In this document: piece by piece, positions 1 through 20,919 of the stretch
How positions within the stretch are numbered: the first letter of the stretch is position 1
Layout of the letters: each line of letters starts with the position of its first letter
NCBI GenBank assembly: GCA_014729085.1
Contig: WJKM01000004.1
Coordinates: forward strand, 4,345 to 68,344
Source of the DNA: Candidatus Dojkabacteria bacterium
GTDB lineage: Bacteria; Patescibacteriota; Dojkabacteria; B142; WJKM01
DNA length: 64,000 bases
Direction of reading: 5' to 3'
The notes under the pieces: model-generated
What the model was told of the DNA's origin: nothing
Database searches by the model: none
What the model saw: the letters and a program-made list of their open reading frames with translations, nothing else
Program-made: the position numbers and the translations under genes

Positions 1-1
1 A

Positions 2-898
2 AATAAAGACACTAAATACAGTATTATAGAAGGAGATGAATACTATGTCGGCTATGATAAAAAAATTTCCAAATTTTTCTACTATAATCCCAAAATTTTA
101 GTACTTACATCCATAAAATGGGATCATACTGATATCTTTAAAACTAAACAGGACTATATTAATAATTTCAGAGAATTAGTAAAACAAGTACCTAAAGATG
201 GCTTAATTATTTATAATAAAATTGACAACAAAGTAAATGAAATTGTACAAGATTCAGCCAAATGTAAAACTGTAGGTTATAATTATAAAAAAGAAATTGG
301 AAATAAATATGATTACCTGAATTCGAAATTTAAAATTATAGGAGAATTTAACAAAGAAAATGCCGTTGCTGCCGGCACTTGTGCTGAAAAACTAGGTATA
401 GATGAAGAGTCAATAAAGAAAGCCTTAATCTCATTTAAAGGAATTAAGAGACGGCTTGAGATCAGATATAGAAATAAGAACCTTATGATTATTGATGATT
501 TTGGTGCTTCGCCTCCAAAAGCAAGGTCGTCCATACTAGCTGTAAAAAAAGTATTCCCTGACTATAAACTACATGTTGTATTTGAACCAAACTTAGGAAG
601 TAGAACATATAAAGCAATTGAAGAATATGATAAGACATTTCATAAAATTGAAAGACTATACTTGCCTAGATTTACTAAAGTTAGTGGAAAGTATTTAGAA
701 AATTATGATCTCGAAAAATATCTCAAAAAAAAGAATATCAAAGCTCAAGCTATTTCAGATGATGAAGAATTAATCGAGATTGTATCTGGAAATATTTATG
801 AGCATAAGAAATCAATTATTTTATTTCTCGGAAGTCATGGTTTTAGAGGCATGATTGAACAAATGACTGAGTTACTCGAAGATGAAGAAATTTCCTAA
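2..898 (+). CDS. murC: Mur ligase family protein, UDP-N-acetylmuramate--L-alanine ligase-like (MurC/Mpl type), 5' end outside window
   Basis: The same frame is open from position 2 through the listed ORF 485..898. The translation shows MurC/Mpl-like motifs (LTSIKWDHTDIF resembling TNIxxDHLD, GIKRRLE resembling GxxRRfE, IDDFGAS in place of IDDYAHHP) and a Mur C-terminal domain. Confidence 0.55.
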   Translation, partial: NKDTKYSIIEGDEYYVGYDKKISKFFYYNPKILVLTSIKWDHTDIFKTKQDYINNFRELVKQVPKDGLIIYNKIDNKVNEIVQDSAKCKTVGYNYKKEIGNKYDYLNSKFKIIGEFNKENAVAAGTCAEKLGIDEESIKKALISFKGIKRRLEIRYRNKNLMIIDDFGASPPKARSSILAVKKVFPDYKLHVVFEPNLGSRTYKAIEEYDKTFHKIERLYLPRFTKVSGKYLENYDLEKYLKKKNIKAQAISDDEELIEIVSGNIYEHKKSIILFLGSHGFRGMIEQMTELLEDEEIS

Positions 899-1244
899 AA
901 AGAAAAAAAAGAAACGATTTAAGACAGCTAAAGAAATTTTACTTTCGAATGATTGGCTTGACGAACGAAAAAAATCTGCAAAATACATCACAAAGGAATA
1001 CCAGGACTATGGTGTTAGGTTAGCTCATAAATTAAACGACCCAGATCACAAAAGTTTATATATAAAATTAGCGAAAGAAGAAAAAAGAGGTTTATTGGAA
1101 AAAGCAGCATCTTTTGCATTAGACTACCCAAATGCAAAAAGCAAAGCTAAAGTATTTATGTGGAAACTAAAAGAACTACGAAAAAAATTTAATAAAAAGA
1201 AACAGAACAAGTCAACCAATAAACAAATGGAATTAATTTCCTAA
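882..1244 (+). CDS. hypothetical Lys-rich basic protein
   Basis: 120-aa ORF that is very K/E-rich (KKKKKKRFK start) and overlaps the murC stop by 17 nt. I recognise no domain. Confidence 0.35.
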   Translation: MKKFPKKKKKKRFKTAKEILLSNDWLDERKKSAKYITKEYQDYGVRLAHKLNDPDHKSLYIKLAKEEKRGLLEKAASFALDYPNAKSKAKVFMWKLKELRKKFNKKKQNKSTNKQMELIS

Positions 1245-1310
1245 TCGATATTTTATATTGTCAAAAACACATCATCATAAATTTGACTTATTCATCTATG
1301 AACTAGATCT

Positions 1311-2279
1311 ATGATTACAGCAATAATTACGGCGTTTAATGAACCTACCACAATAACTAAAGCATTAAAATATATTGTTAATCCTGATTTTTCAGGATTT
1401 AGAAAAAATCTCCAGGTTATTCAAATTTCACCTGATGAAGAAACCTTAGAAAAAGCTTCAAAATACATTAGCACTATCAAAAACCCAAAGCTAGAATATT
1501 TACAAATAAAAGACGAACAGCTTGGAAAGCCTCATGCTTTAAATGTAGGCTTAAAACGTGCTAAATCTGATATAGTAGTATTAACTGACGGAGATGTTCA
1601 TTTCACTGAAAGTTCATTTGTAAATTTAATTGAAGAATTTAAAAAAAGAAAACTCGATGTAGCTTGTGGTAAAGTTATCTCTAAAAATTCTACAAAGACA
1701 CTAACCGGGTATATAAGCCATCTAATGACATCTGCCGCACATCATAAAAGGTTAATTGAGCTAAGTGGAAAAACTGAAGGGTACGGTACTAAATTAGTTC
1801 ATAAAACTAATTTTTTTCCATTATCGGGTTATATGTTGATTTTTAATAAGAAGAAATTAGAGCAAGTTCTTGGGGAGGGTTTTGTGTTTCCTACTGATTG
1901 TTTAGTGGAAGATGCATATTTGTCCTACGTTGCATATAATTACGGCTTAAAGCTAGGGTACATACCTCAGGCAAGAGTGTATGCTAAATTTCCAAGTAAT
2001 TTATCCGACTATTTTAAACAAAAGAAAAGATCTACAGGAGGATATCTTCAACTTTGGAAATACGGTGTGATAAAAAAAGAAACTAATGCCAGATCTTTTT
2101 GGCAGGAACTAAGATATTTTTGGTATCCCTTTAAATTCGCTAAAAGCCTACGTGATATTATATATTCCCTTATCTATTTTCCAATTCGCCTCTACCTGTG
2201 GCTAATGATGTGGTGGGAAAGGAAAATCCTTAAAAAAGATTTTATAAAAACCTGGGTTAGAATTGAGAGTACCAAATAA
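1311..2279 (+). CDS. glycosyltransferase family 2
   Basis: N-terminal IITAFNEP and a DGD motif (VVLTDGDVHF), typical of a GT-A fold GT2 enzyme. ATG start at 1311. Confidence 0.7.
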   Translation: MITAIITAFNEPTTITKALKYIVNPDFSGFRKNLQVIQISPDEETLEKASKYISTIKNPKLEYLQIKDEQLGKPHALNVGLKRAKSDIVVLTDGDVHFTESSFVNLIEEFKKRKLDVACGKVISKNSTKTLTGYISHLMTSAAHHKRLIELSGKTEGYGTKLVHKTNFFPLSGYMLIFNKKKLEQVLGEGFVFPTDCLVEDAYLSYVAYNYGLKLGYIPQARVYAKFPSNLSDYFKQKKRSTGGYLQLWKYGVIKKETNARSFWQELRYFWYPFKFAKSLRDIIYSLIYFPIRLYLWLMMWWERKILKKDFIKTWVRIESTK

Positions 2280-2329
2280 TTTATAATAAGTTTGTATTTA
2301 GATATATATTGATTTATATTTAAATTAAT

Positions 2330-2989
2330 ATGAAAATTTTATCTGCAGGAAAAATCAAAATAGGGTTTCTAGTCCTACTAATGTTTCTAATTGTAGGAGG
2401 TGCATATATATATTCAAACAGTAATTTTAATAATTCAGAAAGCAATGTGTTAGGAGATATTTCGAATAATCTGGAACAAGACTTAATAAATAAATTTGAA
2501 AAAGGAGAGGTTGAACAAGCTGGAGGAACTTGGGAAATAACTAGTAGTACCCCACAAAATACTTATGATCCAAATAAGTCAAAACAACAAGATATTCCTG
2601 AAAATGAGTTAATCAACAATAAGATAAAACGAATACTAAAAGACCAAAACAACTTAAACCAACCTAAAATACGAAGTTATAATACAACCAGTCTTAATAA
2701 TGGAAATTTTGAAGTATTCGTAGAATATAATGCAGGTGACCATTCGAATCATCAAGTACAAAAAAATGAAATGTACAAAGATCTAGTTAAGACGCTAAAA
2801 GAGATCTATCAACATAATAACCCTTATGTTGAATCAGTAAAATTCAATGTATATTTTGAAGATAAATTAGTATTTCAAGTTAATCTAGGTAGCAATAAAG
2901 CTAAACAAGTTAATTGGGAACTTGATGAGGTCTCACTGTATGAAAAGGTTATGCCCTCAGTCTGGAATGTAACTGTAGATAATTTTTAA
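2330..2989 (+). CDS. hypothetical membrane-anchored or secreted protein
   Basis: N-terminal hydrophobic segment (IGFLVLLMFLIVGGAYIY) followed by an N/Q/K-rich hydrophilic region. Confidence 0.5.
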   Translation: MKILSAGKIKIGFLVLLMFLIVGGAYIYSNSNFNNSESNVLGDISNNLEQDLINKFEKGEVEQAGGTWEITSSTPQNTYDPNKSKQQDIPENELINNKIKRILKDQNNLNQPKIRSYNTTSLNNGNFEVFVEYNAGDHSNHQVQKNEMYKDLVKTLKEIYQHNNPYVESVKFNVYFEDKLVFQVNLGSNKAKQVNWELDEVSLYEKVMPSVWNVTVDNF

Positions 2990-3639
2990 GAAGTAAGTGA
3001 CTTAATAATTGAGAATGCTCTCTCTATTTGCTCCTCGGTGATAATTAATATCAATTCATTAGAAGTAGATACAATATCAATTAAGTTAACATCCTCCCAT
3101 GCAAGTGCTTTAAGGATTGAATAATATACTCCTGGAATATTTAAATTATCTGGAGGCAACTTAATACTTATAGCAGAAATCGCATTCAGCTCAAATACAC
3201 TATTTTCATCTTTAAACTTTTTACTAACCAAATCAACAAGCTTTTTATTTACAATAATTGTTATTTCAAAGATTCCCTGCGAAATAATAAAGTAATTCCT
3301 TGGATCATTGTTTAAATTTAAAATGAAATCTTTTAAATTAGAAATCAATGTAGAAGAATTTTGAAAAGTAAATTCATATAAATTTGATTTTATTGTTATA
3401 TCACCTAAATTATTTAATATTTTATTAATTTGATTGGTACCTTTTTTTATTTCAGGCTTATATCTTTTAATAGCCATAATAATAGCTCCAAGCTTGATAT
3501 TTTTCATTGTTTCTTCCCTAACATAAGGCTGAATCTCCCTTGCTAATGCTGAGACGTTAATTAAATCCAAATTTAATGCTTCCTCAATGTAGGGGGTACT
3601 TTTTATATAATTTTTTACAATTTCAGATACTGTTATCAT
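2986..3639 (-). CDS. ACT-domain protein (COG2150-like predicted regulator of amino-acid metabolism)
   Basis: 217 aa with a GLINVSALAREI-type N-terminal region and C-terminal ACT-like repeats. Transcribed divergently from the first T-box leader. Confidence 0.45.
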   Translation of the reverse strand: MITVSEIVKNYIKSTPYIEEALNLDLINVSALAREIQPYVREETMKNIKLGAIIMAIKRYKPEIKKGTNQINKILNNLGDITIKSNLYEFTFQNSSTLISNLKDFILNLNNDPRNYFIISQGIFEITIIVNKKLVDLVSKKFKDENSVFELNAISAISIKLPPDNLNIPGVYYSILKALAWEDVNLIDIVSTSNELILIITEEQIERAFSIIKSLTS

Positions 3640-3705
3640 AATGAATTTAATAATTTGTTAAGATTTTAACACATTATATTAATAATGAACAAAATTTTTA
3701 AAAAT

Positions 3706-3735
3706 TTGAAATCAGTGGATATATTTAATTAAAAT
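3706..3735 (+). promoter_or_regulatory. candidate sigma70-type promoter for T-box leader 1 (TTGAAA, 18 nt, TAAAAT)
   Basis: Hexamers read directly upstream of the leader. This is an AT-rich context, so the call is weak. Confidence 0.2.
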
Positions 3736-3744
3736 TAAACCTAA

Positions 3745-4045
3745 ATTTAAAATTATGAGTTTATTTTTGCATACATTGGAATTAGTGAGTAAGAAATATA
3801 GTGCAATTCTTACAACCAATGCAATAATATGAAGGCTCGTTTATTAATTCAGCATTAAATTAATAAATTTCTGGAAGAAATCTAAAATAAAGACTAGAGA
3901 TTAGAACCAGCGTCTAAGTATACGTTAATTACAATAACCTTGTCATCTATGTGTGATAGAGAGGTTAATGAGATGCAAATAGTGATATCTGCATAAATAG
4001 AGGTGGTACCACGGACTTATAAATCCGTCCTTAGTTTAAAACTAT
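3745..4045 (+). promoter_or_regulatory. T-box riboswitch leader (tRNA-sensing antitermination element)
   Basis: The conserved T-box sequence aaatagaGGTGGTACCacgg at 3995-4014 matches the consensus AAUUAGGGUGGNACCGCGG. Upstream there is a Stem-I-like hairpin with a distal loop ATATAGTGCAA and an AATTAGTGA (UUAG) bulge resembling glyQS-type Stem I. A short hairpin overlaps the T-box at 4011-4030. Confidence 0.7.
4011..4036 (+). terminator. leader terminator hairpin of T-box 1 (ACGGAC-ttataaat-CCGTCC followed by TTAGTTT)
   Basis: The inverted repeat overlaps the 3' half of the T-box sequence, as expected for a terminator/antiterminator switch. The U-tract is weak. Confidence 0.4.
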
Positions 4046-4068
4046 TTAGATTAAGTACGGTATTAAAA

Positions 4069-5943
4069 ATGGAATTATTAACTAAAGAAAAAATTCAGCT
4101 ATTAGAGTATGAAAATACACCAGATGAACTAATACCACCAAGGATGATAGAACAAATCAATGACCAATGGCTTGTGGATTTTGGAGATGAAAATATACGC
4201 ATATGGGACGGTTGGACAGGACCAGTTGTAAGAACAAAAAGACAATGGATAAACTGGGCGGTAGATTTTGTCGGATTTAATTGTGCCGAAATTAATGACT
4301 TAAGCTCCGAGGCAGTAGAAGATTCATATAACGAGTTAACATCCTGGGTAGCTCAAGAAGCACAGAATAAATTGATCCCCAATATTAAAAATCCTGATAA
4401 TTCAAAAAAAAGACAAAAACGACTCATATTTAATGCAGGTTCGAGAGCAACAGGAGATTACATAAATGAATATCATAGAATAAAAGCAGGGAAAAGAGCA
4501 CCACATTTTGATATTTGGACAGGTGCCAGAGCTGGTTTCTATGCAGAAAAAGGAGATATGGTCGTTGGAAGGGGACTAGTTGAAACAATAGGCGAGGCTG
4601 ATCCAGAAATTCAATATGTTGAAATTCAAAATTATAATGAAAGATACTATACGTATGATGCGCTTGCTCAATGGGCAGAGGATGATCCGTATTTTAATAA
4701 TCCTTCAAATCCAATCGTTCCAATTGTAAACTTTCTGAATGAAAACCCAGAAGTTTCAATTTCTCTTTATGCAAATGGTTTCGAAGAGCAAATTGTACTT
4801 TTATACTTATTAAGCTTAACTAATAACAAAACGCTAAATATTGAAGCTAACAGTCCACTTGTTGACTCATTGAATAATAAAGCTATTCTTCATCCAGAAA
4901 TAGATGAAGTACTTGAGGTTGAAGTTGAAGACTTGAATTCTTCGGAGGAAATTCTAAACACCTTAAGAAGAGAAAAATTGAGTTCACAGATAGCTCAATA
5001 TTTTGGTGAAGAAATACTTGATATTTTCCTGGGAGTGCCTGGCTGTACAATAAGTAAAACAGAGGATCTAGAAGAATATGAAAAAAAATTTAGACGTCTG
5101 TATGATTATTTTTATAATAGATATGGAATAACGAAAATTGTTGCAAAGCCAGCCGTTTCATGTGACGGGGAAGGAATTATATTCAATATTGATCCAAGAG
5201 AAACAGAAACATTAGATAAACTTGCACGAGAATTATTTAATCATAAAACCTACATCTTTGAACCGCAAATAAATTTCAACAAATATGAAATAAACGGAGA
5301 GTATAGAGATATAGTTCCCTCGGTACATATTAAAGATGGATACACACTAGTTGGACTTGGAACTAATCAAAAAATTTATGATGAAGGTGTTTGGGGAGGT
5401 CATGATTTACTGGATAAAGTAAATGCGGAAAAACTTGGTTTAAGCGAAATGTTTGAAAAGATGGAAAAGTATATGACTATAATTGCTTCCAAATCACGAG
5501 AAAAAAACTTAGGACTTTCTTTGGCCGGTATTGATTTTTATGAAGGGACTGTTGAGAGTGATAATCCAATCATTGCTTCTAGGATTTGGAGTGGACCAGG
5601 TGACCCAAATATTCGTTTAACAGGAGCAGCATATATTTATGCTTCATTTGATAAAGTTGTTGAAGAAATTGAAAATCATTACGGCACAAAACTTATTCCC
5701 GGAGATGTATCTGTCTCTACAAGAGTAATAACCCCCAATGCTGATTACCAAACCATAGACATGTTAGTGCAAAAATTTAAAGAAGAAAATGGTAATTTGG
5801 ACGTCAAAATAACGTTTGGAACAGTTGCTGCATGTAAAGGTGGCTGGGGTATGATTTATGCAAGCGGAGAGAATACAAATACAGCGTGCAAATATGCAGA
5901 AAAATTAGTAGAATTCCTTGAATCAAATAATATTTTAATTTAA
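4069..5943 (+). CDS. uncharacterised 625-aa protein with a C-terminal ATP-grasp-like ligase domain
   Basis: The ORF track starts at 4003, but 4003-4068 lie inside the T-box and terminator, so the start is moved to ATG 4069 (MELLTKEK). IVAKPAVSCDGEGIIFNI resembles the ATP-grasp vvKP..gs.G.Gv loop, with IFEPQIN and AGIDFYEG...IIASRIWSGPG downstream. The N-terminal 370 aa match nothing I recognise. Confidence 0.6.
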   Translation: MELLTKEKIQLLEYENTPDELIPPRMIEQINDQWLVDFGDENIRIWDGWTGPVVRTKRQWINWAVDFVGFNCAEINDLSSEAVEDSYNELTSWVAQEAQNKLIPNIKNPDNSKKRQKRLIFNAGSRATGDYINEYHRIKAGKRAPHFDIWTGARAGFYAEKGDMVVGRGLVETIGEADPEIQYVEIQNYNERYYTYDALAQWAEDDPYFNNPSNPIVPIVNFLNENPEVSISLYANGFEEQIVLLYLLSLTNNKTLNIEANSPLVDSLNNKAILHPEIDEVLEVEVEDLNSSEEILNTLRREKLSSQIAQYFGEEILDIFLGVPGCTISKTEDLEEYEKKFRRLYDYFYNRYGITKIVAKPAVSCDGEGIIFNIDPRETETLDKLARELFNHKTYIFEPQINFNKYEINGEYRDIVPSVHIKDGYTLVGLGTNQKIYDEGVWGGHDLLDKVNAEKLGLSEMFEKMEKYMTIIASKSREKNLGLSLAGIDFYEGTVESDNPIIASRIWSGPGDPNIRLTGAAYIYASFDKVVEEIENHYGTKLIPGDVSVSTRVITPNADYQTIDMLVQKFKEENGNLDVKITFGTVAACKGGWGMIYASGENTNTACKYAEKLVEFLESNNILI

Positions 5944-6001
5944 AGATGTATTTATTTTTAAAATTTGTTAAATTAAATTACTATTTTTTAATAATAAAAC
6001 A

Positions 6002-6928
6002 ATGAACTCAAAGAGACTTTCATTCTTATTCATTATATTCTTTATCTTGATAAATACATCTCAACATATCTATGCGAAACAATATCCAGATGTTGATAGT
6101 TCTACTTCTCATTACAAAGAAATAGACTATATAACTGATTTAAATTACGCATCGGGTTATACAGACGGTACCTATAAACCATATAGAGAGATAACAAGAG
6201 CTGAATTCACAAAAATTTTGATTAATGCAAAATATACCTCAAATGAGATTGAGTCGTGTACAAATCAATTTAATATAACATTTCCTGATGTATCTCCTGA
6301 CTATCATTTTCGTAAATATATATGTATTGCTGAGAAGGAAGGAATTGTAAAGGGCTATACCGATGGATATTATCGTCCTGAACAAAGTATTACCTTTGGA
6401 GAAGCTTCAAAAATAGTATTAAGAACTCTCTCTCAAACTTTTTCATTACCTTCCGATGCTTTGCTAACTGAATATATTGAGCTTTTAGATTATACTAATT
6501 CTATTCCTACAACTATTTCAAGCAGAACTACAGGAAAGATGACAGATGTCAATTTAAATAGATCTGAAATGGCTTATCTTATTTATCGTGGAAAAGAACT
6601 CTACGATGATATGTTTTATTTTAACTTATATGAAAACCAAAGCCACTCTTATGTAGACCATAATAATAAACTTGTTGTAAGTATAGCCAATACAGGGCAT
6701 ATTAAGAATACAGATATAAATATTAATTCGATGGATTTAGATTGTAGTGATGATCGGATCGAGGTTACTTTAACAATAACAGAAGGTTCAAATAAACAGC
6801 AGATCCATTTAGATAAAAGTTGTAGTACCATATATTCCAAAACTGTAAGTTATAAAGACTACTATTCTTTGGAATTATTAGAATTTAATAATGCTCCTGC
6901 AGCTATTTTAAAAGTTTCAATATTTTAG
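6002..6928 (+). CDS. secreted SLH-domain (S-layer homology) protein
   Basis: Signal peptide (LSFLFIIFFILINTSQHIYA). Two SLH-like repeats (YASGYTDGTYKPYREITRAEFTKIL and FPDVSPDYHF...GIVKGYTDGYYRPEQSITFGEASKIV). Confidence 0.65.
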   Translation: MNSKRLSFLFIIFFILINTSQHIYAKQYPDVDSSTSHYKEIDYITDLNYASGYTDGTYKPYREITRAEFTKILINAKYTSNEIESCTNQFNITFPDVSPDYHFRKYICIAEKEGIVKGYTDGYYRPEQSITFGEASKIVLRTLSQTFSLPSDALLTEYIELLDYTNSIPTTISSRTTGKMTDVNLNRSEMAYLIYRGKELYDDMFYFNLYENQSHSYVDHNNKLVVSIANTGHIKNTDININSMDLDCSDDRIEVTLTITEGSNKQQIHLDKSCSTIYSKTVSYKDYYSLELLEFNNAPAAILKVSIF

Positions 6929-6959
6929 ACTAAAGAGAAATTTGATATAATAATATTTA

Positions 6960-7240
6960 TGAGAACTTAGCAGTAATCAACCAGTAGGGAAACTGGAATA
7001 GTGAAACCCAGTTTAATAATACTACTAAGCAAGACTCACATATCTAATGTTAGATATGCTTCTGAAAGAAACCCAGATACCTGGCTAGTAGAATCAGACG
7101 TATAATGCACGAAAAGCATAGAGCTTACTTGTGAGCTTATAAGATACTGATAGTAATACCAGTATGAATAAAGGTGGTACCGCTTTAAATAGCCCTTAAT
7201 AACATTTACTGAGATGAATGTTATTAAGGGTTTTTTATTT
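6960..7240 (+). promoter_or_regulatory. T-box riboswitch leader upstream of lysS (candidate Lys AAG specifier)
   Basis: T-box sequence aataaaGGTGGTACCGCttt at 7167-7183. Stem I has a distal loop AATAGTGAAAC closed by AAACTGG/CCAGTTT, closely resembling B. subtilis glyQS GAUAGUGAAAG. The candidate specifier loop is ...CUAAG-C-AAG-A-CUC at about 7029-7033. A strong terminator follows. Confidence 0.8.
7193..7240 (+). terminator. intrinsic terminator of the lysS T-box leader
   Basis: Perfect 14-bp stem CCCTTAATAACATT / AATGTTATTAAGGG with loop tactgagatg, followed by TTTTTTATTTT. Its 5' arm can pair alternatively with the T-box sequence as an antiterminator. Confidence 0.75.
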
Positions 7241-7281
7241 TGTAAATTAATTTAAAATTACTAATTATTAAACTAAAAAAA

Positions 7282-10200
7282 ATGGGTAAAACTAAATCTA
7301 CACTAGCACAAATCAGACAGTTTCGAATTGATAAAGCTAATGCTCTAAGAGAAAAAGGTATTGAACCTTATCCAACAAAAGCATCTAGAACAAATTACTC
7401 CGATGAGATTAAAAAAAATTATAGTGATTTTAAAGATAAAAAAGTGACTCTTGCCGGTCGTCTTATGTCATGGCGGGAACATGGACATATTATTTTTGGT
7501 GATATTCAAGATCAAAAGGGAGTCATTCAGCTTTATATTAAAGAAGATACTCTTAATGCAACTAATAAGCAAAAACAATCTATCGGCTTTGAAGATCTTG
7601 AATTACTAGACATAGGAGATATCATTGAAGCAACTGGAATTATAACTAAAACAAAAAGTGGAGAAATATCTATTTTAGCTCAGCAGATTAAAATTCTTAC
7701 GAAAGCCATCAGACCGCTTCCCGAAAAATGGATAGGACTTACTAATAAAGAGAAAATATTCAGAAAAAGATATTTAGATTTGATTGTAAATCCGGAAAAG
7801 AAATACAGATTTGAAAAAAGCGCGCAGATTGTTGCGGCGATAAGACAGTTTTTAAACGATAAAGGATTTCTGGAGATCAAAACACCCATAATTCAACCTT
7901 TATATGGAGGCACAAATGCACGCCCTTTTAAAACATACATGAATGCACTAAGTACAGATTTCTATTTAGCAATTTCTCATGAACTTTATTTAAAACGACT
8001 AATTACAGCAGGTTTTGACAATGTTTACAATATTGCGGGCTATTTCAGAAACGAAGGTATAGATAGATCCCATAATCCAGAATTTCAAATGATTGAAACT
8101 ATGAGTGCTTTTCATAATTATGAATACAATATGGATTTGATAGAAGAACTCTATCAATTTATAGGTAAAAACGTATTTAAGAAAAATATCTTCAAAGTTA
8201 GTGGCCAAGATGTCGACTTTAGTAAACCATGGGAAAGAATTATGATGATTGATGCTGTTAAAAAATATGCTGATATAAACTTTAATAAAATAAATGATAT
8301 TGATTCTGCTCATAATATACTCGCTAAAATTGGTTATGAAGAAGACAAACCAAATACAATTGGAGAATGTATGGTTAAAGTTTTCGAAGAGAAAGTTGAA
8401 GAACAATTAATTCAACCAACTTTTATTACCGGACATCCGGTTGAAATATCACCTCTTGCAAAACAAATGCCTTCTGATTCAAGATTTGTTGAAAGATTTG
8501 AAATCTTTATTGGCGGAATAGAAGGTGGAGATAATTGGACTGAACTTAATGACCCGGTTGAGTTGTATGAAAGACTTAAAGAACAAGTAGAGAGGGGTAG
8601 AGGAGGAGATGACGAATTTCATCCTATGGATGTTGATTTTATTGAATGTATGGAATATGGTATGCCTCCAACAACAGGACTTGGACCTGGCATTGAAAGA
8701 CTACAAATGATGTATTTGGAAACAGAATATATCGATGATGTAATATTCTTTCCAATACAAAGGCCAGCACCTCCAACTGAACTACAAAAAGAATTATATG
8801 GAGCAGAATATCTTGAAAGTAAAGAAAAAGAACTTAAAATACAATCAATAGAACAAAAAGATTTAGATAAACTACCTTCAAAAATAGATGCATTGGATCT
8901 ATTACATAAATATGTAGATGACGATTATCAGGTACTTCATGCAAAAATGGTTGCCGCCGCAATGCAAGATTATGCAGAGGATCTCGGGGCTAATCCGCAT
9001 CTATGGTATATAACCGGTTTACTGCATGATTTGGACTATGCAAAATATCCAGATAAACATCCTTATCAAGAACTTGAATGGTTCAAAGAATGGAAATATC
9101 CTGATCAATTCATACATGCAGTTGCTGCCCATGATCATCTGACAACCGGAGAAGAACCAGAAACTTTACTAGCTGCGGTGTTGCTTGCAGTTGATGAATT
9201 ATCCGGTATTCTCTATGCATATTCAAAAATGCGGGATAAGAATTTTTCCGGTATGAAAGCTAAATCTGCCATAAAAAAACTTGAGGATAAGAATTTTGCA
9301 GCAAAAATAAGCAGAGATGAGATTAAACATGGAATTAAATTATCTAAATTAGATTTAGAACCACATATCAAAAATATGATTACAACTTTTGATAATATGA
9401 AAGAATTTGGAGGTGACAAAGATTATACAGATAAAGTTGAAACAAAAGTTCATTCACTATTAACTAAAAAATTAAAACTTGCTGAGATAACTTCAGAAGT
9501 AAAAGAGAAGTTTCCTGGTATAAAATTCGGATATATAGTTCTTGAGGATGTGAAAGTTGATAAAAAAGATAAAAATTTAGACAAACTTAAAAAAGAAATA
9601 ATTTCTAAACTAGAATCTCAGTATACCGACAAATCTGAAATTAAGGAAAATGATAGGATTGAAGGATTTCGTAAAATCTATAAAAATTCCGGAGTTGATC
9701 CAAATAGTAGATTGAATAGTGCCGAAGCATTGCTAAGAAGAATTGTAAGCGGGAATGGTATATATAATGTAAACAATGTTGTAGATACATATAACATCAC
9801 TTCTGCTGAATTGGGCATTCCTATGGCTGCATATGATTTAGATAAAATAGAGGGTAGATTATCACTCCGTTTTGCAAATAAAGGAGAATCAATAATTAGA
9901 ATTGGAGAAGAAAAACCGAAGTTAATTGAGAAGGGAGAGTTAGTATATGCAGATAACAAAGGCATTACATGCATGGATTTTAATTATAGGGATGCAGATA
10001 GAACTAAAATTACAAAGGAAACAAATAAAATAATTGTATTTATAGATGGACATCAAACTATCAGTCAGAAGGAAATACTCTCCTCATTAAACCTGTTAGG
10101 ACAAAGACTTGAAACATACACAGAAGGTAAGGTAATTGGTTATGGGACTTCATGGGAGGAAGACAAAGTTCTTAACGAAGAAATCAAACAAGATATGAGT

Positions 10201-10605
10201 CGAAAGATGGTTATTGTAGTTGACAAAACATTAGAAAATTGGAAAGTTCTAAATATAGTTGGGCATGTATCTGCTTATCTAGGACATCAGATGGATGAAA
10301 AATTCAGTTCCGGCCCTGCATATAGAACAAAAGACGGAGTAAGATATGATAGAAGTTGCCAATATCCAATAATTGTTTTGCAAACTGATTCATCTAAATT
10401 GTTAGACCTCAAGGATCAGTCTGAATTATCAGATATCCTCTCTTTTTCTTTTACTAAACAACATCTAGAAATTGAGAAGGATGAAGATGTTGATGCATCC
10501 ATTTCAAATCTTGAAGAAAAAGAAATTGAGCTTTATGGTGTGGGTTTAGTAGGGGAAAAAGAAAAGTTAGACAAACTTACAAATAATTTTAAACTATGGA
10601 AGTAA
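7282..10605 (+). CDS. lysS: lysine--tRNA ligase (class II) fused to an HD phosphohydrolase domain, a B3/4 (PheT editing-like) domain and a DUF2000-like C-terminal domain
   Basis: Single uninterrupted 1107-aa ORF. Residues 1-500 are canonical class II LysRS (OB fold, FRNEG motif 2, GLGPGIERL motif 3). The HD domain spans about nt 8860-9440 (HAKMVAAAMQDYAEDLGANPHLWYITGLLHDLDY). The B3/4 domain spans about nt 9510-10060 (NNVVDTYNITSAELGIPMAAYDLDKIEGRLSLRFANKGESI...LVYADNKGITCMDFNYRDADRTKIT). The C-terminal 150 aa (VVVDKTLENWKVLNIVGHVSAYLGHQ) look DUF2000-like, a family reported to have a peptidyl-tRNA-hydrolase-like fold. Confidence 0.85.
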   Translation: MGKTKSTLAQIRQFRIDKANALREKGIEPYPTKASRTNYSDEIKKNYSDFKDKKVTLAGRLMSWREHGHIIFGDIQDQKGVIQLYIKEDTLNATNKQKQSIGFEDLELLDIGDIIEATGIITKTKSGEISILAQQIKILTKAIRPLPEKWIGLTNKEKIFRKRYLDLIVNPEKKYRFEKSAQIVAAIRQFLNDKGFLEIKTPIIQPLYGGTNARPFKTYMNALSTDFYLAISHELYLKRLITAGFDNVYNIAGYFRNEGIDRSHNPEFQMIETMSAFHNYEYNMDLIEELYQFIGKNVFKKNIFKVSGQDVDFSKPWERIMMIDAVKKYADINFNKINDIDSAHNILAKIGYEEDKPNTIGECMVKVFEEKVEEQLIQPTFITGHPVEISPLAKQMPSDSRFVERFEIFIGGIEGGDNWTELNDPVELYERLKEQVERGRGGDDEFHPMDVDFIECMEYGMPPTTGLGPGIERLQMMYLETEYIDDVIFFPIQRPAPPTELQKELYGAEYLESKEKELKIQSIEQKDLDKLPSKIDALDLLHKYVDDDYQVLHAKMVAAAMQDYAEDLGANPHLWYITGLLHDLDYAKYPDKHPYQELEWFKEWKYPDQFIHAVAAHDHLTTGEEPETLLAAVLLAVDELSGILYAYSKMRDKNFSGMKAKSAIKKLEDKNFAAKISRDEIKHGIKLSKLDLEPHIKNMITTFDNMKEFGGDKDYTDKVETKVHSLLTKKLKLAEITSEVKEKFPGIKFGYIVLEDVKVDKKDKNLDKLKKEIISKLESQYTDKSEIKENDRIEGFRKIYKNSGVDPNSRLNSAEALLRRIVSGNGIYNVNNVVDTYNITSAELGIPMAAYDLDKIEGRLSLRFANKGESIIRIGEEKPKLIEKGELVYADNKGITCMDFNYRDADRTKITKETNKIIVFIDGHQTISQKEILSSLNLLGQRLETYTEGKVIGYGTSWEEDKVLNEEIKQDMSRKMVIVVDKTLENWKVLNIVGHVSAYLGHQMDEKFSSGPAYRTKDGVRYDRSCQYPIIVLQTDSSKLLDLKDQSELSDILSFSFTKQHLEIEKDEDVDASISNLEEKEIELYGVGLVGEKEKLDKLTNNFKLWK

Positions 10606-20835: not shown

Positions 20836-20919
20836 GCCGTTGTGGCGGAACTGGTAGACGCGCTGGTCTTAGGAACCAGTGGGAGCAATCCCGTGGAGGT
20901 TCGATTCCTCTCGACGGCA
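20836..20919 (+). tRNA. tRNA-Leu (anticodon UAG), no encoded CCA
   Basis: Cloverleaf folded by hand. Acceptor stem GCCGTTG/CGACGGC, anticodon stem CTGGT/ACCAG with loop CTTAGGA (U33, UAG, A37), long variable arm, T-arm GAGGTTCGATTCCTC. Confidence 0.85.

Follow-up and report, generated by a model that had tools for sequence, protein, structure and literature searches.

The window, the 64-kb stretch of DNA that was analysed, comes from a Candidatus Dojkabacteria bacterium with a tiny genome. It carries two T-box-like leaders, T1 and T2, about 3 kb apart, neither of which is present in the standard annotation. T1 precedes an uncharacterised gene for a predicted ATP-grasp ligase, and T2 precedes lysS. 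The promoter-like site of T1, the genes, and T2 with its parts are as follows, in positions of the window with + for the forward strand.

3706..3735, +, promoter-like site of T1 (TTGAAA, 18-nt spacer, TAAAAT; 10/12 in a consensus scan, a pattern match only)
4069..5943, +, GF362_00445, predicted ATP-grasp carboxylate-amine ligase of an uncharacterised family, 624 aa
6002..6928, +, SLH-domain protein gene (Pfam SLH, 6e-21), 58 nt downstream of the ligase gene
6924..7243, +, paralogous T-box T2 including its promoter (RF00230, 31.6 bits, E 2.2e-5)
6924-6951, +, T2 extended -10 promoter
6960-7038, +, T2 Stem I, specifier AAG+A at 7031-7034
7171-7197, +, T2 antiterminator
7191-7232, +, T2 terminator, then a U-run
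7282..10605, +, lysS, class II lysyl-tRNA synthetase fused to HD, B3_4 and DUF2000 domains (Pfam)

The ligase open reading frame encodes one residue fewer than the 625 given in the initial annotation. No terminator-like site was found at 5943-6002, and the SLH gene is possibly co-transcribed with the ligase gene. The lysS product scores above the cut-offs of both NCBIfam NF001756 (567.8 bits) and TIGR00499 (523.9 bits). The composition profile of the 5-kb insertion in which the ligase gene lies has no GC anomaly, and two small upstream ORFs gave marginal matches only against PDB sequences.

Between 3756 and 4032 all of the tRNA-contacting parts of a T-box are present: Stem I with its AG bulge and distal loop, Stem II, a CGUUA box, Stem III, and the antiterminator AGAGGUGGUACC. 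Transcription is predicted to start at about 3742. The parts of T1 are listed here.

3756..3839, +, Stem I, every pair verified by script
3756-59 / 3836-39, +, Stem I base helix, UGAG / CUCG
3762-65 / 3826-29, +, Stem I helix, UAUU / AAUA
3767-69 / 3822-24, +, Stem I helix, UUG / CAA
3774-79 / 3816-21, +, Stem I helix, CAUUGG / CCAAUG
3780-3789, +, Stem I AG bulge AAUUAGUGAG, unpaired
3790-95 / 3807-12, +, Stem I distal helix (6 bp), UAAGAA / UUCUUA
3796-3806, +, Stem I distal loop AUAUAGUGCAA, unpaired
3832..3835, +, proposed specifier AAG (Lys, 3832-3834) with its purine G, immediately before the base-helix 3' strand, by analogy with T2
3840..3867, +, extra hairpin X1 (UUUAUUAAUU / AAUUAAUAAA, 10 bp) between Stem I and Stem II, not in the Rfam consensus
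3871..3910, +, Stem II, CUGG 3871-74 / CCAG 3907-10, enclosing the purine string AAGAAA and ..UUAGAA
3911..3928, +, Stem IIA-like hairpin CGU/ACG, then a CGUUA (F-box-like) motif, from sequence
3936..3966, +, extra hairpin X2 (AACCU...AGGUU)
3973..3994, +, Stem III (AUGCA...UGCAU), from the Rfam alignment; direct repeat with T2
4000..4032, +, T-box sequence and antiterminator, from the Rfam alignment with high posterior probability
4025..4060, +, competitor helix (CCGU/ACGG and an 11-bp hairpin) that recruits the antiterminator's 3' strand; 9 nt separate it from the ATG

The initial annotation had put a T-box leader immediately before an uncharacterised ATP-grasp-like protein, and in this it is borne out, with the RNA motifs, the platform pattern, the helices and the fold in agreement. 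Its T-box motif aaatagaGGTGGTACCacgg is at 3995-4014, its distal loop ATATAGTGCAA at 3796-3806, and the UUAG bulge within the AG bulge segment at 3780-3789. The description of Stem I as glyQS-like is misleading. Its AG bulge and distal loop are platform motifs of T-boxes in general, and T1 has a Stem II and a CGUUA box, both of which are absent from leaders of the glyQS type. The conserved T-box sequence is AGAGGUGGUACCACGG. Its antiterminator is made up of A1 (GAGG/CCUU), a 7-nt bulge UGGUACC (4004-4010) and A2 (ACGGA/UCCGU). No recognisable K-turn was found in T1.

The Rfam search that had been proposed for the leader gave a divided result. RF00230 matched 3881-4035 at 39.0 bits with an E-value of 3.3e-7 for the 551-nt stretch searched, or about 4e-5 when rescaled to the whole window. 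This is far below the gathering score of 93 bits, T1 is missing from a gathering-threshold Rfam scan, and the alignment puts Stem I in the wrong place. The actual Stem I was built by hand and its pairs were then checked by script. The Stem I region alone (3735-3850) gave no T-box match, an isolated Stem I not being scorable by the model.

The sub-threshold score could be taken to mean that AT-rich intergenic DNA here resembles a T-box by accident, particularly as GGTGGTACC by itself is not rare when one mismatch or fewer is allowed (3 matches against 2 expected). This is scarcely credible in view of the E-value, the platform motif on the same strand some 200 nt upstream, the full set of helices and the paralogy with the leader of lysS. 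A pattern combining the AG bulge and distal loop matched only T1 and T2 in the whole window, where about 0.37 matches would be expected on both strands together. The longest direct repeat within 2000-7400 is the Stem III and T-box region of the two leaders (43 nt, 77% identity). On sequence grounds T1 (~3742-4068) is best explained as a true T-box riboswitch whose form, with its two additional hairpins, is particular to the lineage.

T1 and T2 have their layout in common, including the extra hairpins, and T2 therefore serves as an internal reference. X1 has its counterpart at 7040-7057 and X2 at 7122-7137, and the equivalent of the Stem IIA-like region is CGU..ACG at 7099-7119. The loops, bulges and T-box sequence are kept between the two while the helices diverge. 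Five of the six pairs in the distal helix are changed on both sides with pairing kept (UAAGAA/UUCUUA in T1, AACUGG/CCAGUU in T2). The same pattern of altered sequence and preserved pairing is seen in Stem II and Stem III. Stem II of T2 (UCUGA-AAGAAA...CUAGUAGAA-UCAGA) has one compensatory pair relative to T1, G-C against A-U.

The specificity of T2 is fixed by the gene downstream of it, lysS. In T2 the specifier AAG+A directly precedes the CUCA strand of the base helix, and in T1 UGAAGG precedes CUCG, which gives AAG+G; the 5' strand is UGAG in both. Both leaders have UGGU, which would pair with a discriminator A73, as the initial annotation had foreseen for T1. Bacterial tRNA-Lys has A73, as does elongator tRNA-Met, while bacterial tRNA-Glu has G73. 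Because T2 carries AAG+A on a like base helix and both leaders have a UGGU that fits A73, tRNA-Lys is the likeliest ligand of T1 by analogy, and this assignment is considered reasonably probable. None of the candidates originally listed as specifiers (AUG, AAU and GAA) is the best placed, which is AAG at 3832-3834; GAA is an alternative register one nucleotide away, and AUG and AAU are poorly placed. No tRNA-Lys gene is present within the window.

The codon register of T1 is ambiguous by 1-2 nt, since G-U wobble pairs can form between U3760 and G3835 and between U3761 and G3834. Such a G-U shift would give GAA+G or UGA+A, and the minimum-free-energy fold does add these two G-U pairs to the base helix. 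T1 could then be a working T-box for another tRNA: tRNA-Glu, through GAA at 3831-3833 followed by G on a base helix GAGU/GCUC, or, less likely, tRNA-Met, through AUG at 3829-3831. BesA, a top structural neighbour of the ligase, uses glutamate according to its PDB description. LdmS, also a neighbour, uses methionine and has a methionine-related riboswitch above it, and the A73 of elongator tRNA-Met would suit UGGU. The G73 of tRNA-Glu does not, however, and the AUG is four nucleotides from the helix, away from the canonical order of codon, purine and helix. The paralogue T2, with its unambiguous AAG+A on the same base helix, also stands against a different tRNA, and such a reading is unlikely. 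A glycine specifier (GAA-GGC-U, resembling the GAAGGCA of glyQS) was rejected; it would need UGGA for a discriminator U73, it has U rather than a purine after the codon, and its base helix is poor.

A lysine assignment is unusual in itself. Lysine specifiers are among the rarest in T-boxes, in which codons ending in A are usually preferred (PMC7778990). Lysine-specific T-boxes and T-box control of lysyl-tRNA synthetase are very rare, found in four species among 891 genomes and always with a second lysyl-tRNA synthetase (PMC2916919).

T2 has the helix and U-tract of an intrinsic terminator, unlike T1. No canonical terminator was found in T1, in which the competitor helix (4025-4060) has no U-tract and is followed by UAUUAAAAAUG. 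The competitor helix is predicted to be about 6 kcal/mol more stable than the antiterminator (-13.4 against -7.0 kcal/mol). Shine-Dalgarno motifs are found upstream of only 2 of 57 ORFs, both at mechanically assigned non-ATG starts. With no terminator in T1 and no Shine-Dalgarno sites in the organism, how the switch is read out becomes a testable question. Modelled accessibility of the start site changes modestly between the free and the antiterminator-constrained leader, the mean unpaired probability at -20..-1 being 0.32 in one state against 0.52 in the other.

The missing U-tract and this small change would fit a T1 that is a duplicate of the lysS T-box, retaining the appearance of a tRNA binder but regulating nothing, the ligase being constitutive or otherwise controlled. 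The leader has also been found in one genome only, with homologues lacking it. Neutral decay would not be expected, however, to leave strongly diverged helices with their pairing and all tRNA-contacting motifs intact, and the retention of the more stable competitor helix is standard T-box switch geometry. A non-regulating copy is thus rather improbable, and from its sequence T1 would be expected to regulate expression of the ligase, at the level of transcription or of translation.

Relatives of the two genes were searched for leaders, as had been suggested for homologues of the ligase. For the one close homologue (P0002, 49% identity) the contig breaks off 86 nt upstream, and this short stretch contains no GGTGGNACC, only an unrelated-looking hairpin. 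No T-box leader was found in any of the other ligase homologues examined (28% identity or less), four low-GC relatives among them, nor at five Dojkabacteria-type lysS loci with upstream gaps of 3-166 nt. A profile search of genome contigs with a 4-sequence ligase alignment gave 16 loci, mostly in actinomycetes, with the source genome not among them. A search of metagenome contigs with the lysyl-tRNA synthetase fusion gave mainly synthetase matches at 35–40% identity and no lysS orthologues with leaders.

The protein that T1 precedes belongs to a family of about 126 clusters worldwide that has no Pfam or NCBIfam model, and the ligase itself matched none of these models. Among 49 family members, one weakly matches ATP-grasp (0.0053) and one PreAtp-grasp (0.014). 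A HMMER profile search of PDB sequences with the family gave no match. The AF2 model of the ligase (pLDDT 91.6, pTM 0.90) has the three-domain ATP-grasp fold which, with a pre-ATP-grasp N-domain, aligns over 359–384 residues in structure comparison, as had been surmised. Only about the first 200 aa are outside the aligned fold, rather than the 370 thought to be novel. The best structural matches are the amino-acid or peptide ligases 8ynd, BesA, PGM1 and LdmS. Both the proposed ATP-grasp loop, IVAKPAVSCDGEGIIFNI, and IIASRIWSGPG are present in the protein. The latter had been read as an EvNxxPG-like region, but the Mg-binding motif is the DPN after it (D512, N514). K271, K360, G367, D489, D512 and N514 are invariant in the 49 members; judged by motif position, not by residue-level superposition, these would be the ATP-binding lysines, Gly-rich loop and Mg-binding residues.

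The protein is therefore probably an ATP-grasp carboxylate-amine ligase resembling BesA, PGM1 and LdmS, with the amine probably that of an amino acid or peptide. It could instead be an ATP-grasp enzyme that forms no amide, of the kinase or carboxylase type or an inactive scaffold. This is improbable given that all of the best structural matches are amino-acid or peptide ligases, that the ATP and Mg residues are invariant, and that relatives adjoin aminotransferases and peptidases.

With tRNA-Lys as the most likely ligand, uncharged tRNA would dock on the Stem I platform of T1, where its anticodon would pair with AAG (3832-3834), while the free ACCA at its 3' end would pair with UGGU (4004-4007). 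Once docked, it would allow the antiterminator-type helix (4000-4032) to prevail over the competitor helix (4025-4060), the stronger of the two. The ligase gene would thereby be switched on, perhaps along with the SLH gene that follows. The ligase would convert a carboxylate to an acyl-phosphate and couple it to an amine, probably that of an amino acid or a peptide. With the T-box T2 on lysS, it would belong to a small lysine-limitation regulon. It is odd for a starvation regulon to include a ligase that consumes an amino acid, which counts against this explanation. As a whole, from a T-box that senses tRNA-Lys to the regulon shared with T2, it is nonetheless favoured, if with some reservation.

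More speculatively, the 5-kb insertion, seen only in this Dojkabacteria lineage, could serve as a module for lysine stress that carries an aspartokinase-like ACT-domain protein, the T-box ligase, the SLH protein and a T-box on the syntenic lysS. Two tRNA-Lys-sensing T-boxes of unseen architecture would coordinate lysyl-tRNA synthetase with a new ligase family that makes a lysine-linked or lysine-sparing amide, and T1 would work without a terminator or Shine-Dalgarno sequence as a new expression platform. So much in combination is doubtful. If true, it would extend T-boxes to a Candidate Phyla Radiation (CPR) bacterium in forms missed by Rfam thresholds.

T-box leaders show which amino acid is tied to the function of a gene, so that T1 offers a handle, probably lysine, on a family without a model. 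Lysine T-boxes are rare anywhere, and here there would be two in one tiny genome. A full-text literature search found no paper tying T-boxes to CPR or Patescibacteria. In this CPR genome they take a divergent form scoring 32–39 bits against a threshold of 93, and a compact T-box at another locus (L034) was undetected by Rfam. Riboswitch censuses of CPR genomes are probably incomplete, because divergent forms fall below the threshold or go undetected.

Among known systems T1 most resembles the class I transcriptional T-boxes (RF00230; for example B. subtilis tyrS and B. cereus lysK). In these, too, Stem I has an AG bulge and a distal loop, besides a specifier loop such as is proposed for T1. 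A purine string in Stem II is shared as well, along with the CGUUA box, Stem III and the conserved T-box sequence. The 7-nt UGGN bulge in the antiterminator and the competing helix on its 3' strand are also in common. T1 differs in its extra hairpins X1 and X2, in having neither K-turn nor U-tract, in its score (39 against 93 bits) and in its Candidatus Dojkabacteria host. With the translational class II T-boxes of actinobacterial ileS it shares the lack of an intrinsic terminator and an alternative helix just upstream of the start codon, which makes control of translation initiation conceivable. Stem I is shorter in class II leaders, which mask a Shine-Dalgarno sequence, whereas T1 has a full-length Stem I with platform in a genome almost without Shine-Dalgarno sites. 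The ligase shares only 11–13% identity with PGM1, BesA and 8ynd (Streptomyces), and its family has the additional N-terminal region of about 200 aa. A precedent is the L-Asp-L-Met ATP-grasp ligase LdmS (SAOUHSC_02373), whose operon is headed by an S-box riboswitch in several Staphylococcaceae (PMC9486568). There the riboswitch is an S-box that senses SAM, and here it is a T-box that would sense tRNA; the amino acid and the protein family also differ.

A scan of the whole window at Rfam gathering thresholds returned a tRNA-Leu gene (20836-20919) as its sole match and no T-box. In a permissive scan of 3600-4150, the T-box model RF00230 (gathering score 93) matches T1, the leader of the ligase gene GF362_00445, at 3881-4035 (E 3.3e-7); the score, 39.0 bits, is under the Rfam threshold. 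The 3' half of this match, which takes in Stem III, AAAUAGAGGUGGUACCACGG and the antiterminator (bulge UGGUACC), has high posterior probability. The model's placement of Stem I at 3881-3920, with a 68-to-5-position deletion, is wrong. The true Stem I is at 3756-3839, every pair of which was checked by script:

base helix, UGAG/CUCG
helix, UAUU/AAUA
helix, UUG/CAA
helix, CAUUGG/CCAAUG
AG bulge, AAUUAGUGAG
distal helix, UAAGAA/UUCUUA
distal loop, 11 nt, AUAUAGUGCAA

The platform formed by the AG bulge and distal loop was searched for as AGNGA, 5-10 nt, TRGTGNAA over 128 kb, both strands counted. There are exactly two matches, T1 and T2, the leader of lysS, against approximately 0.37 expected from first-order Markov simulations. 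Judged by its sequence, T1 would behave as a T-box, with the tRNA-contacting features present, while its Rfam score is subthreshold and a terminator is lacking. The sequences quoted in the initial annotation are present where it placed them, and its main reading, a T-box leader before the gene of an ATP-grasp protein, is supported with corrections. It called the Stem I distal loop 'glyQS-like', but T1 is not a glyQS-like leader.

T2 (6924-7243) contains a second copy of GGTGGTACC (7173-7181) and is matched by RF00230 at 6947-7200, again subthreshold (31.6 bits, E 2.2e-5). Its other features are:

6924-6951, extended -10 promoter
7191-7232, terminator of textbook form, then a U-run

The product of the downstream lysS (7282-10605) is a 1107-aa class II LysRS fused to HD, B3_4 and DUF2000 domains (Pfam), and exceeds the cut-offs of NF001756 (567.8 bits) and TIGR00499 (523.9 bits). 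The B3_4 domain is of the PheRS-beta type, and among the search matches the nearest LysRS relatives have differing subsets of these additions (LysRS+DUF2000, +HD, +B3_4).

Both leaders have the order Stem I, extra hairpin X1, Stem II (with the purine string AAGAAA), a CGU/ACG hairpin, extra hairpin X2, Stem III and antiterminator. This architecture departs from the Rfam T-box consensus, and the low Rfam scores are due to the two extra hairpins. Loops, bulges and the T-box sequence are kept between T1 and T2, whereas the helices differ yet remain paired:

distal helix, T1 UAAGAA/UUCUUA, T2 AACUGG/CCAGUU
Stem II, T1 CUGG/CCAG, T2 UCUGA/UCAGA
Stem III, T1 AUGCA/UGCAU, T2 AUACUG/CAGUAU

The longest direct repeat of the region consists of their Stem III and T-box parts (43 nt, 77% identity). 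This pattern of conservation is that expected of diverged paralogues, both selected for tRNA binding. A decaying T1 copied from T2 conflicts with the kept loops and motifs, and with helices that have changed but still pair.

The 3' side of the T2 specifier loop has CAAGA immediately 5' of the base-helix strand CUCA, the partner of UGAG. The specifier is therefore AAG plus the usual purine, which agrees with lysS, and the RF00230 alignment of T2 has AAG in the specifier-equivalent columns. In T1 the 5' strand is likewise UAUGAG, and the 3' side, UGAAGG, is followed by CUCG, giving AAG + G. The initial annotation listed AUG, AAU and GAA as candidate specifiers, so that the best candidate, AAG (Lys), was missing. 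UGGU is present in both leaders and pairs with an A at the discriminator position, which is A73 in bacterial tRNA-Lys but G73 in tRNA-Glu. In the minimum-free-energy fold of T1, U3760 and U3761 wobble-pair with G3835 and G3834, and the codon register could therefore become GAA+G or UGA+A. From the AAG specifier, tRNA-Lys is probably the ligand of T1. It is unlikely to be tRNA-Glu and very improbable that it is tRNA-Met; the remaining probability falls to another tRNA or none. In TBDB, Lys specifiers are among the rarest, and >85% of two-codon families favour the A-ending codon (PMC7778990). T-box-controlled LysRS was found in only 4 species among 891 genomes, always with a second LysRS also present (PMC2916919). 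Judged by these two surveys, two Lys leaders together are unusual.

No U-tract terminator was found in a search of T1. Its competitor helix (4025-4060), made up of CCGU/ACGG and an 11-bp hairpin, captures the 3' strand of each antiterminator helix and is more stable than the antiterminator (-13.4 versus -7.0 kcal/mol), which is the standard T-box switch geometry. UAUUAAAAAUG is directly 3' of this helix, which stops 9 nt short of the ATG (4069). When the fold is left unconstrained, the T-box bulge can pair with 4059-4065 as well, and the modelled gain in accessibility at positions -20 to -1 is small (0.32 to 0.52). An SD-like motif is upstream of only 2 of the 57 window ORFs, both at non-ATG, mechanically chosen starts; the actinobacterial 'SD sequestrator' model is therefore not directly transferable to T1. 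Of the T-box control proposed initially, the leader stands; T1 may regulate transcription or translation, and would do so through a non-canonical expression platform.

On the same ORF count, initiation in this genome (30% GC) appears not to depend on SD motifs. The SLH gene (5975-6004) and lysS (7255-7284) share 77% identity in the 30 nt up to and including the ATG (AAATTACTA...AAAATG), which may be a common translation-initiation context or an AT-rich coincidence.

The ligase protein has no match in Pfam or NCBIfam, and a sequence profile run against PDB entries had no hits. Four relatives came from a word-index search. One is the identical NCBI entry ('hypothetical protein GF362_00445, Candidatus Dojkabacteria bacterium'), another has 49% identity, and the remaining two have 23-25%. 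Searched exhaustively with an HMMER profile, 1.84 billion proteins gave 126 cluster representatives, mostly of 550-650 aa and matched full-length. The family is small and distinct. Its structural matches (entry and score) are:

Streptomyces ATP-grasp peptide ligase, 8ynd, 21.3
BesA (L-propargylglycine-L-glutamate ligase), 8yi6, 20.2
PGM1, 3wvq, 19.7
LdmS, 7r8p, 18.3
PurD, PylC, PurK and PurT, ranking below LdmS

Between 359 and 384 residues are aligned in the top three, and the ATP-grasp matches of a Foldseek check agree (E 1.3e-12). From the structural alignments, the ATP-grasp fold, including the pre-ATP-grasp domain, therefore covers approximately residues 200-624. K271, K360, G367, D489, D512 and N514 are invariant in 49 family sequences and would fit the ATP-binding lysines, Gly-rich loop and Mg-binding residues of ATP-grasp enzymes. 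The N-terminal 370 aa had been described as novel; this holds for the first approximately 200 residues, which have no structural match and include an invariant GD..VGR motif, and not for the rest, which the fold covers. Its modelled fold and catalytic residues put the protein in the ATP-grasp superfamily, though not demonstrably in any characterised family, and it is predicted to act like an ATP-grasp amino-acid or peptide ligase.

Among representative genomes the family is mainly found in actinomycetes (Streptomyces, Kitasatospora, Pseudonocardiaceae and an Allorhizocola MAG), and also in MAGs assigned to Deltaproteobacteria, Thermoanaerobaculia and Candidatus Multivoradales. In several Streptomyces loci, L007 and L009 (about 1-9700) among them, an apparent operon ends with the ligase relative. 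The other operon genes encode a Lys/Orn-monooxygenase-like flavoprotein, a haem-oxygenase-like iron enzyme, an amidohydrolase and a class I/II aminotransferase, with an unknown protein as well in L007 and L009. Close by is a gene for a peptidase C26 or TauD, and in L007 and L009 the peptidase C26 gene lies opposite. This operon looks like an uncharacterised natural-product cluster with amino-acid-derived chemistry, as for BesA and PGM1. One low-GC relative (L036) adjoins aminotransferases, an M20 peptidase and a GCS2 ligase, and those in L035 and L038 adjoin other amino-acid enzymes. None of the low-GC relatives examined has an upstream T-box. The closest homologue (49% identity) is 86 nt from a contig end, so there is too little upstream sequence for a leader.

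In five lysS loci of Dojkabacteria type the upstream gap is short and there is no T-box. One of these five, L030, has the gene order of the window (Mur ligase, small ORF, GT2, lysS; GT2 proteins 45% identical) with GT2 abutting lysS, and approximately 5 kb, with four ORFs and both T-boxes, has therefore been inserted in the window:

2280-7281, insertion between GT2 and lysS, containing a hypothetical ORF, the ACT-like protein, T1 and the ligase gene, the SLH protein and T2
2986-3639, - strand, 217-aa ACT-like protein, divergent from the T1 promoter

The composition profile has no GC anomaly across 2280-7281. The T-box-controlled lysS is the copy within the conserved GT2-lysS synteny. The 217-aa protein weakly resembles the aspartokinase ACT regulatory region (Pfam ACT_9 7e-4, TIGR00656 4.6e-4, PDB 3c1m 0.35), a region with lysine or threonine as its ligand in other organisms. 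The resemblance is a hint, though a weak one, at a connection with lysine.

A compact T-box-like element is present at 6758-6935 of L034 (Logan SRR23636737 contig 9805), directly 3' of an ATP-grasp ligase relative and 5' of a 134-aa ORF and two tandem ThrRS genes. Rfam gives it no match even with the E limit raised to 10. Its features are the AG bulge AGUGAG, the distal loop AUUAAGUGAAA, AAAGGUGGAACC with UGGA, a strong terminator with a U-run (fold z-score -3.9) and a candidate specifier of ACC or ACA. Upstream of the L034 ligase relative is a 1.1-kb non-coding gap, ending in two tandem terminator-like hairpins (4860-4968), CCAGCCUUCAGGCUGG+U6 and CCAGCUUGAAAUAGCUGG+U6. Pairing of AAGGCUGG, which lies upstream, with CCAGCCUU could form an anti-terminator, and the region may be an attenuator or a riboswitch of unknown class.

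A non-exhaustive literature search found no paper tying T-boxes to CPR or Patescibacteria and, beyond PMC9486568, none tying them to ATP-grasp regulon members. The nearest functional precedent for an ATP-grasp ligase preceded by a riboswitch is LdmS, an L-Asp-L-Met ligase, the operon of which, in several Staphylococcaceae, has an S-box riboswitch as its control element (PMC9486568).
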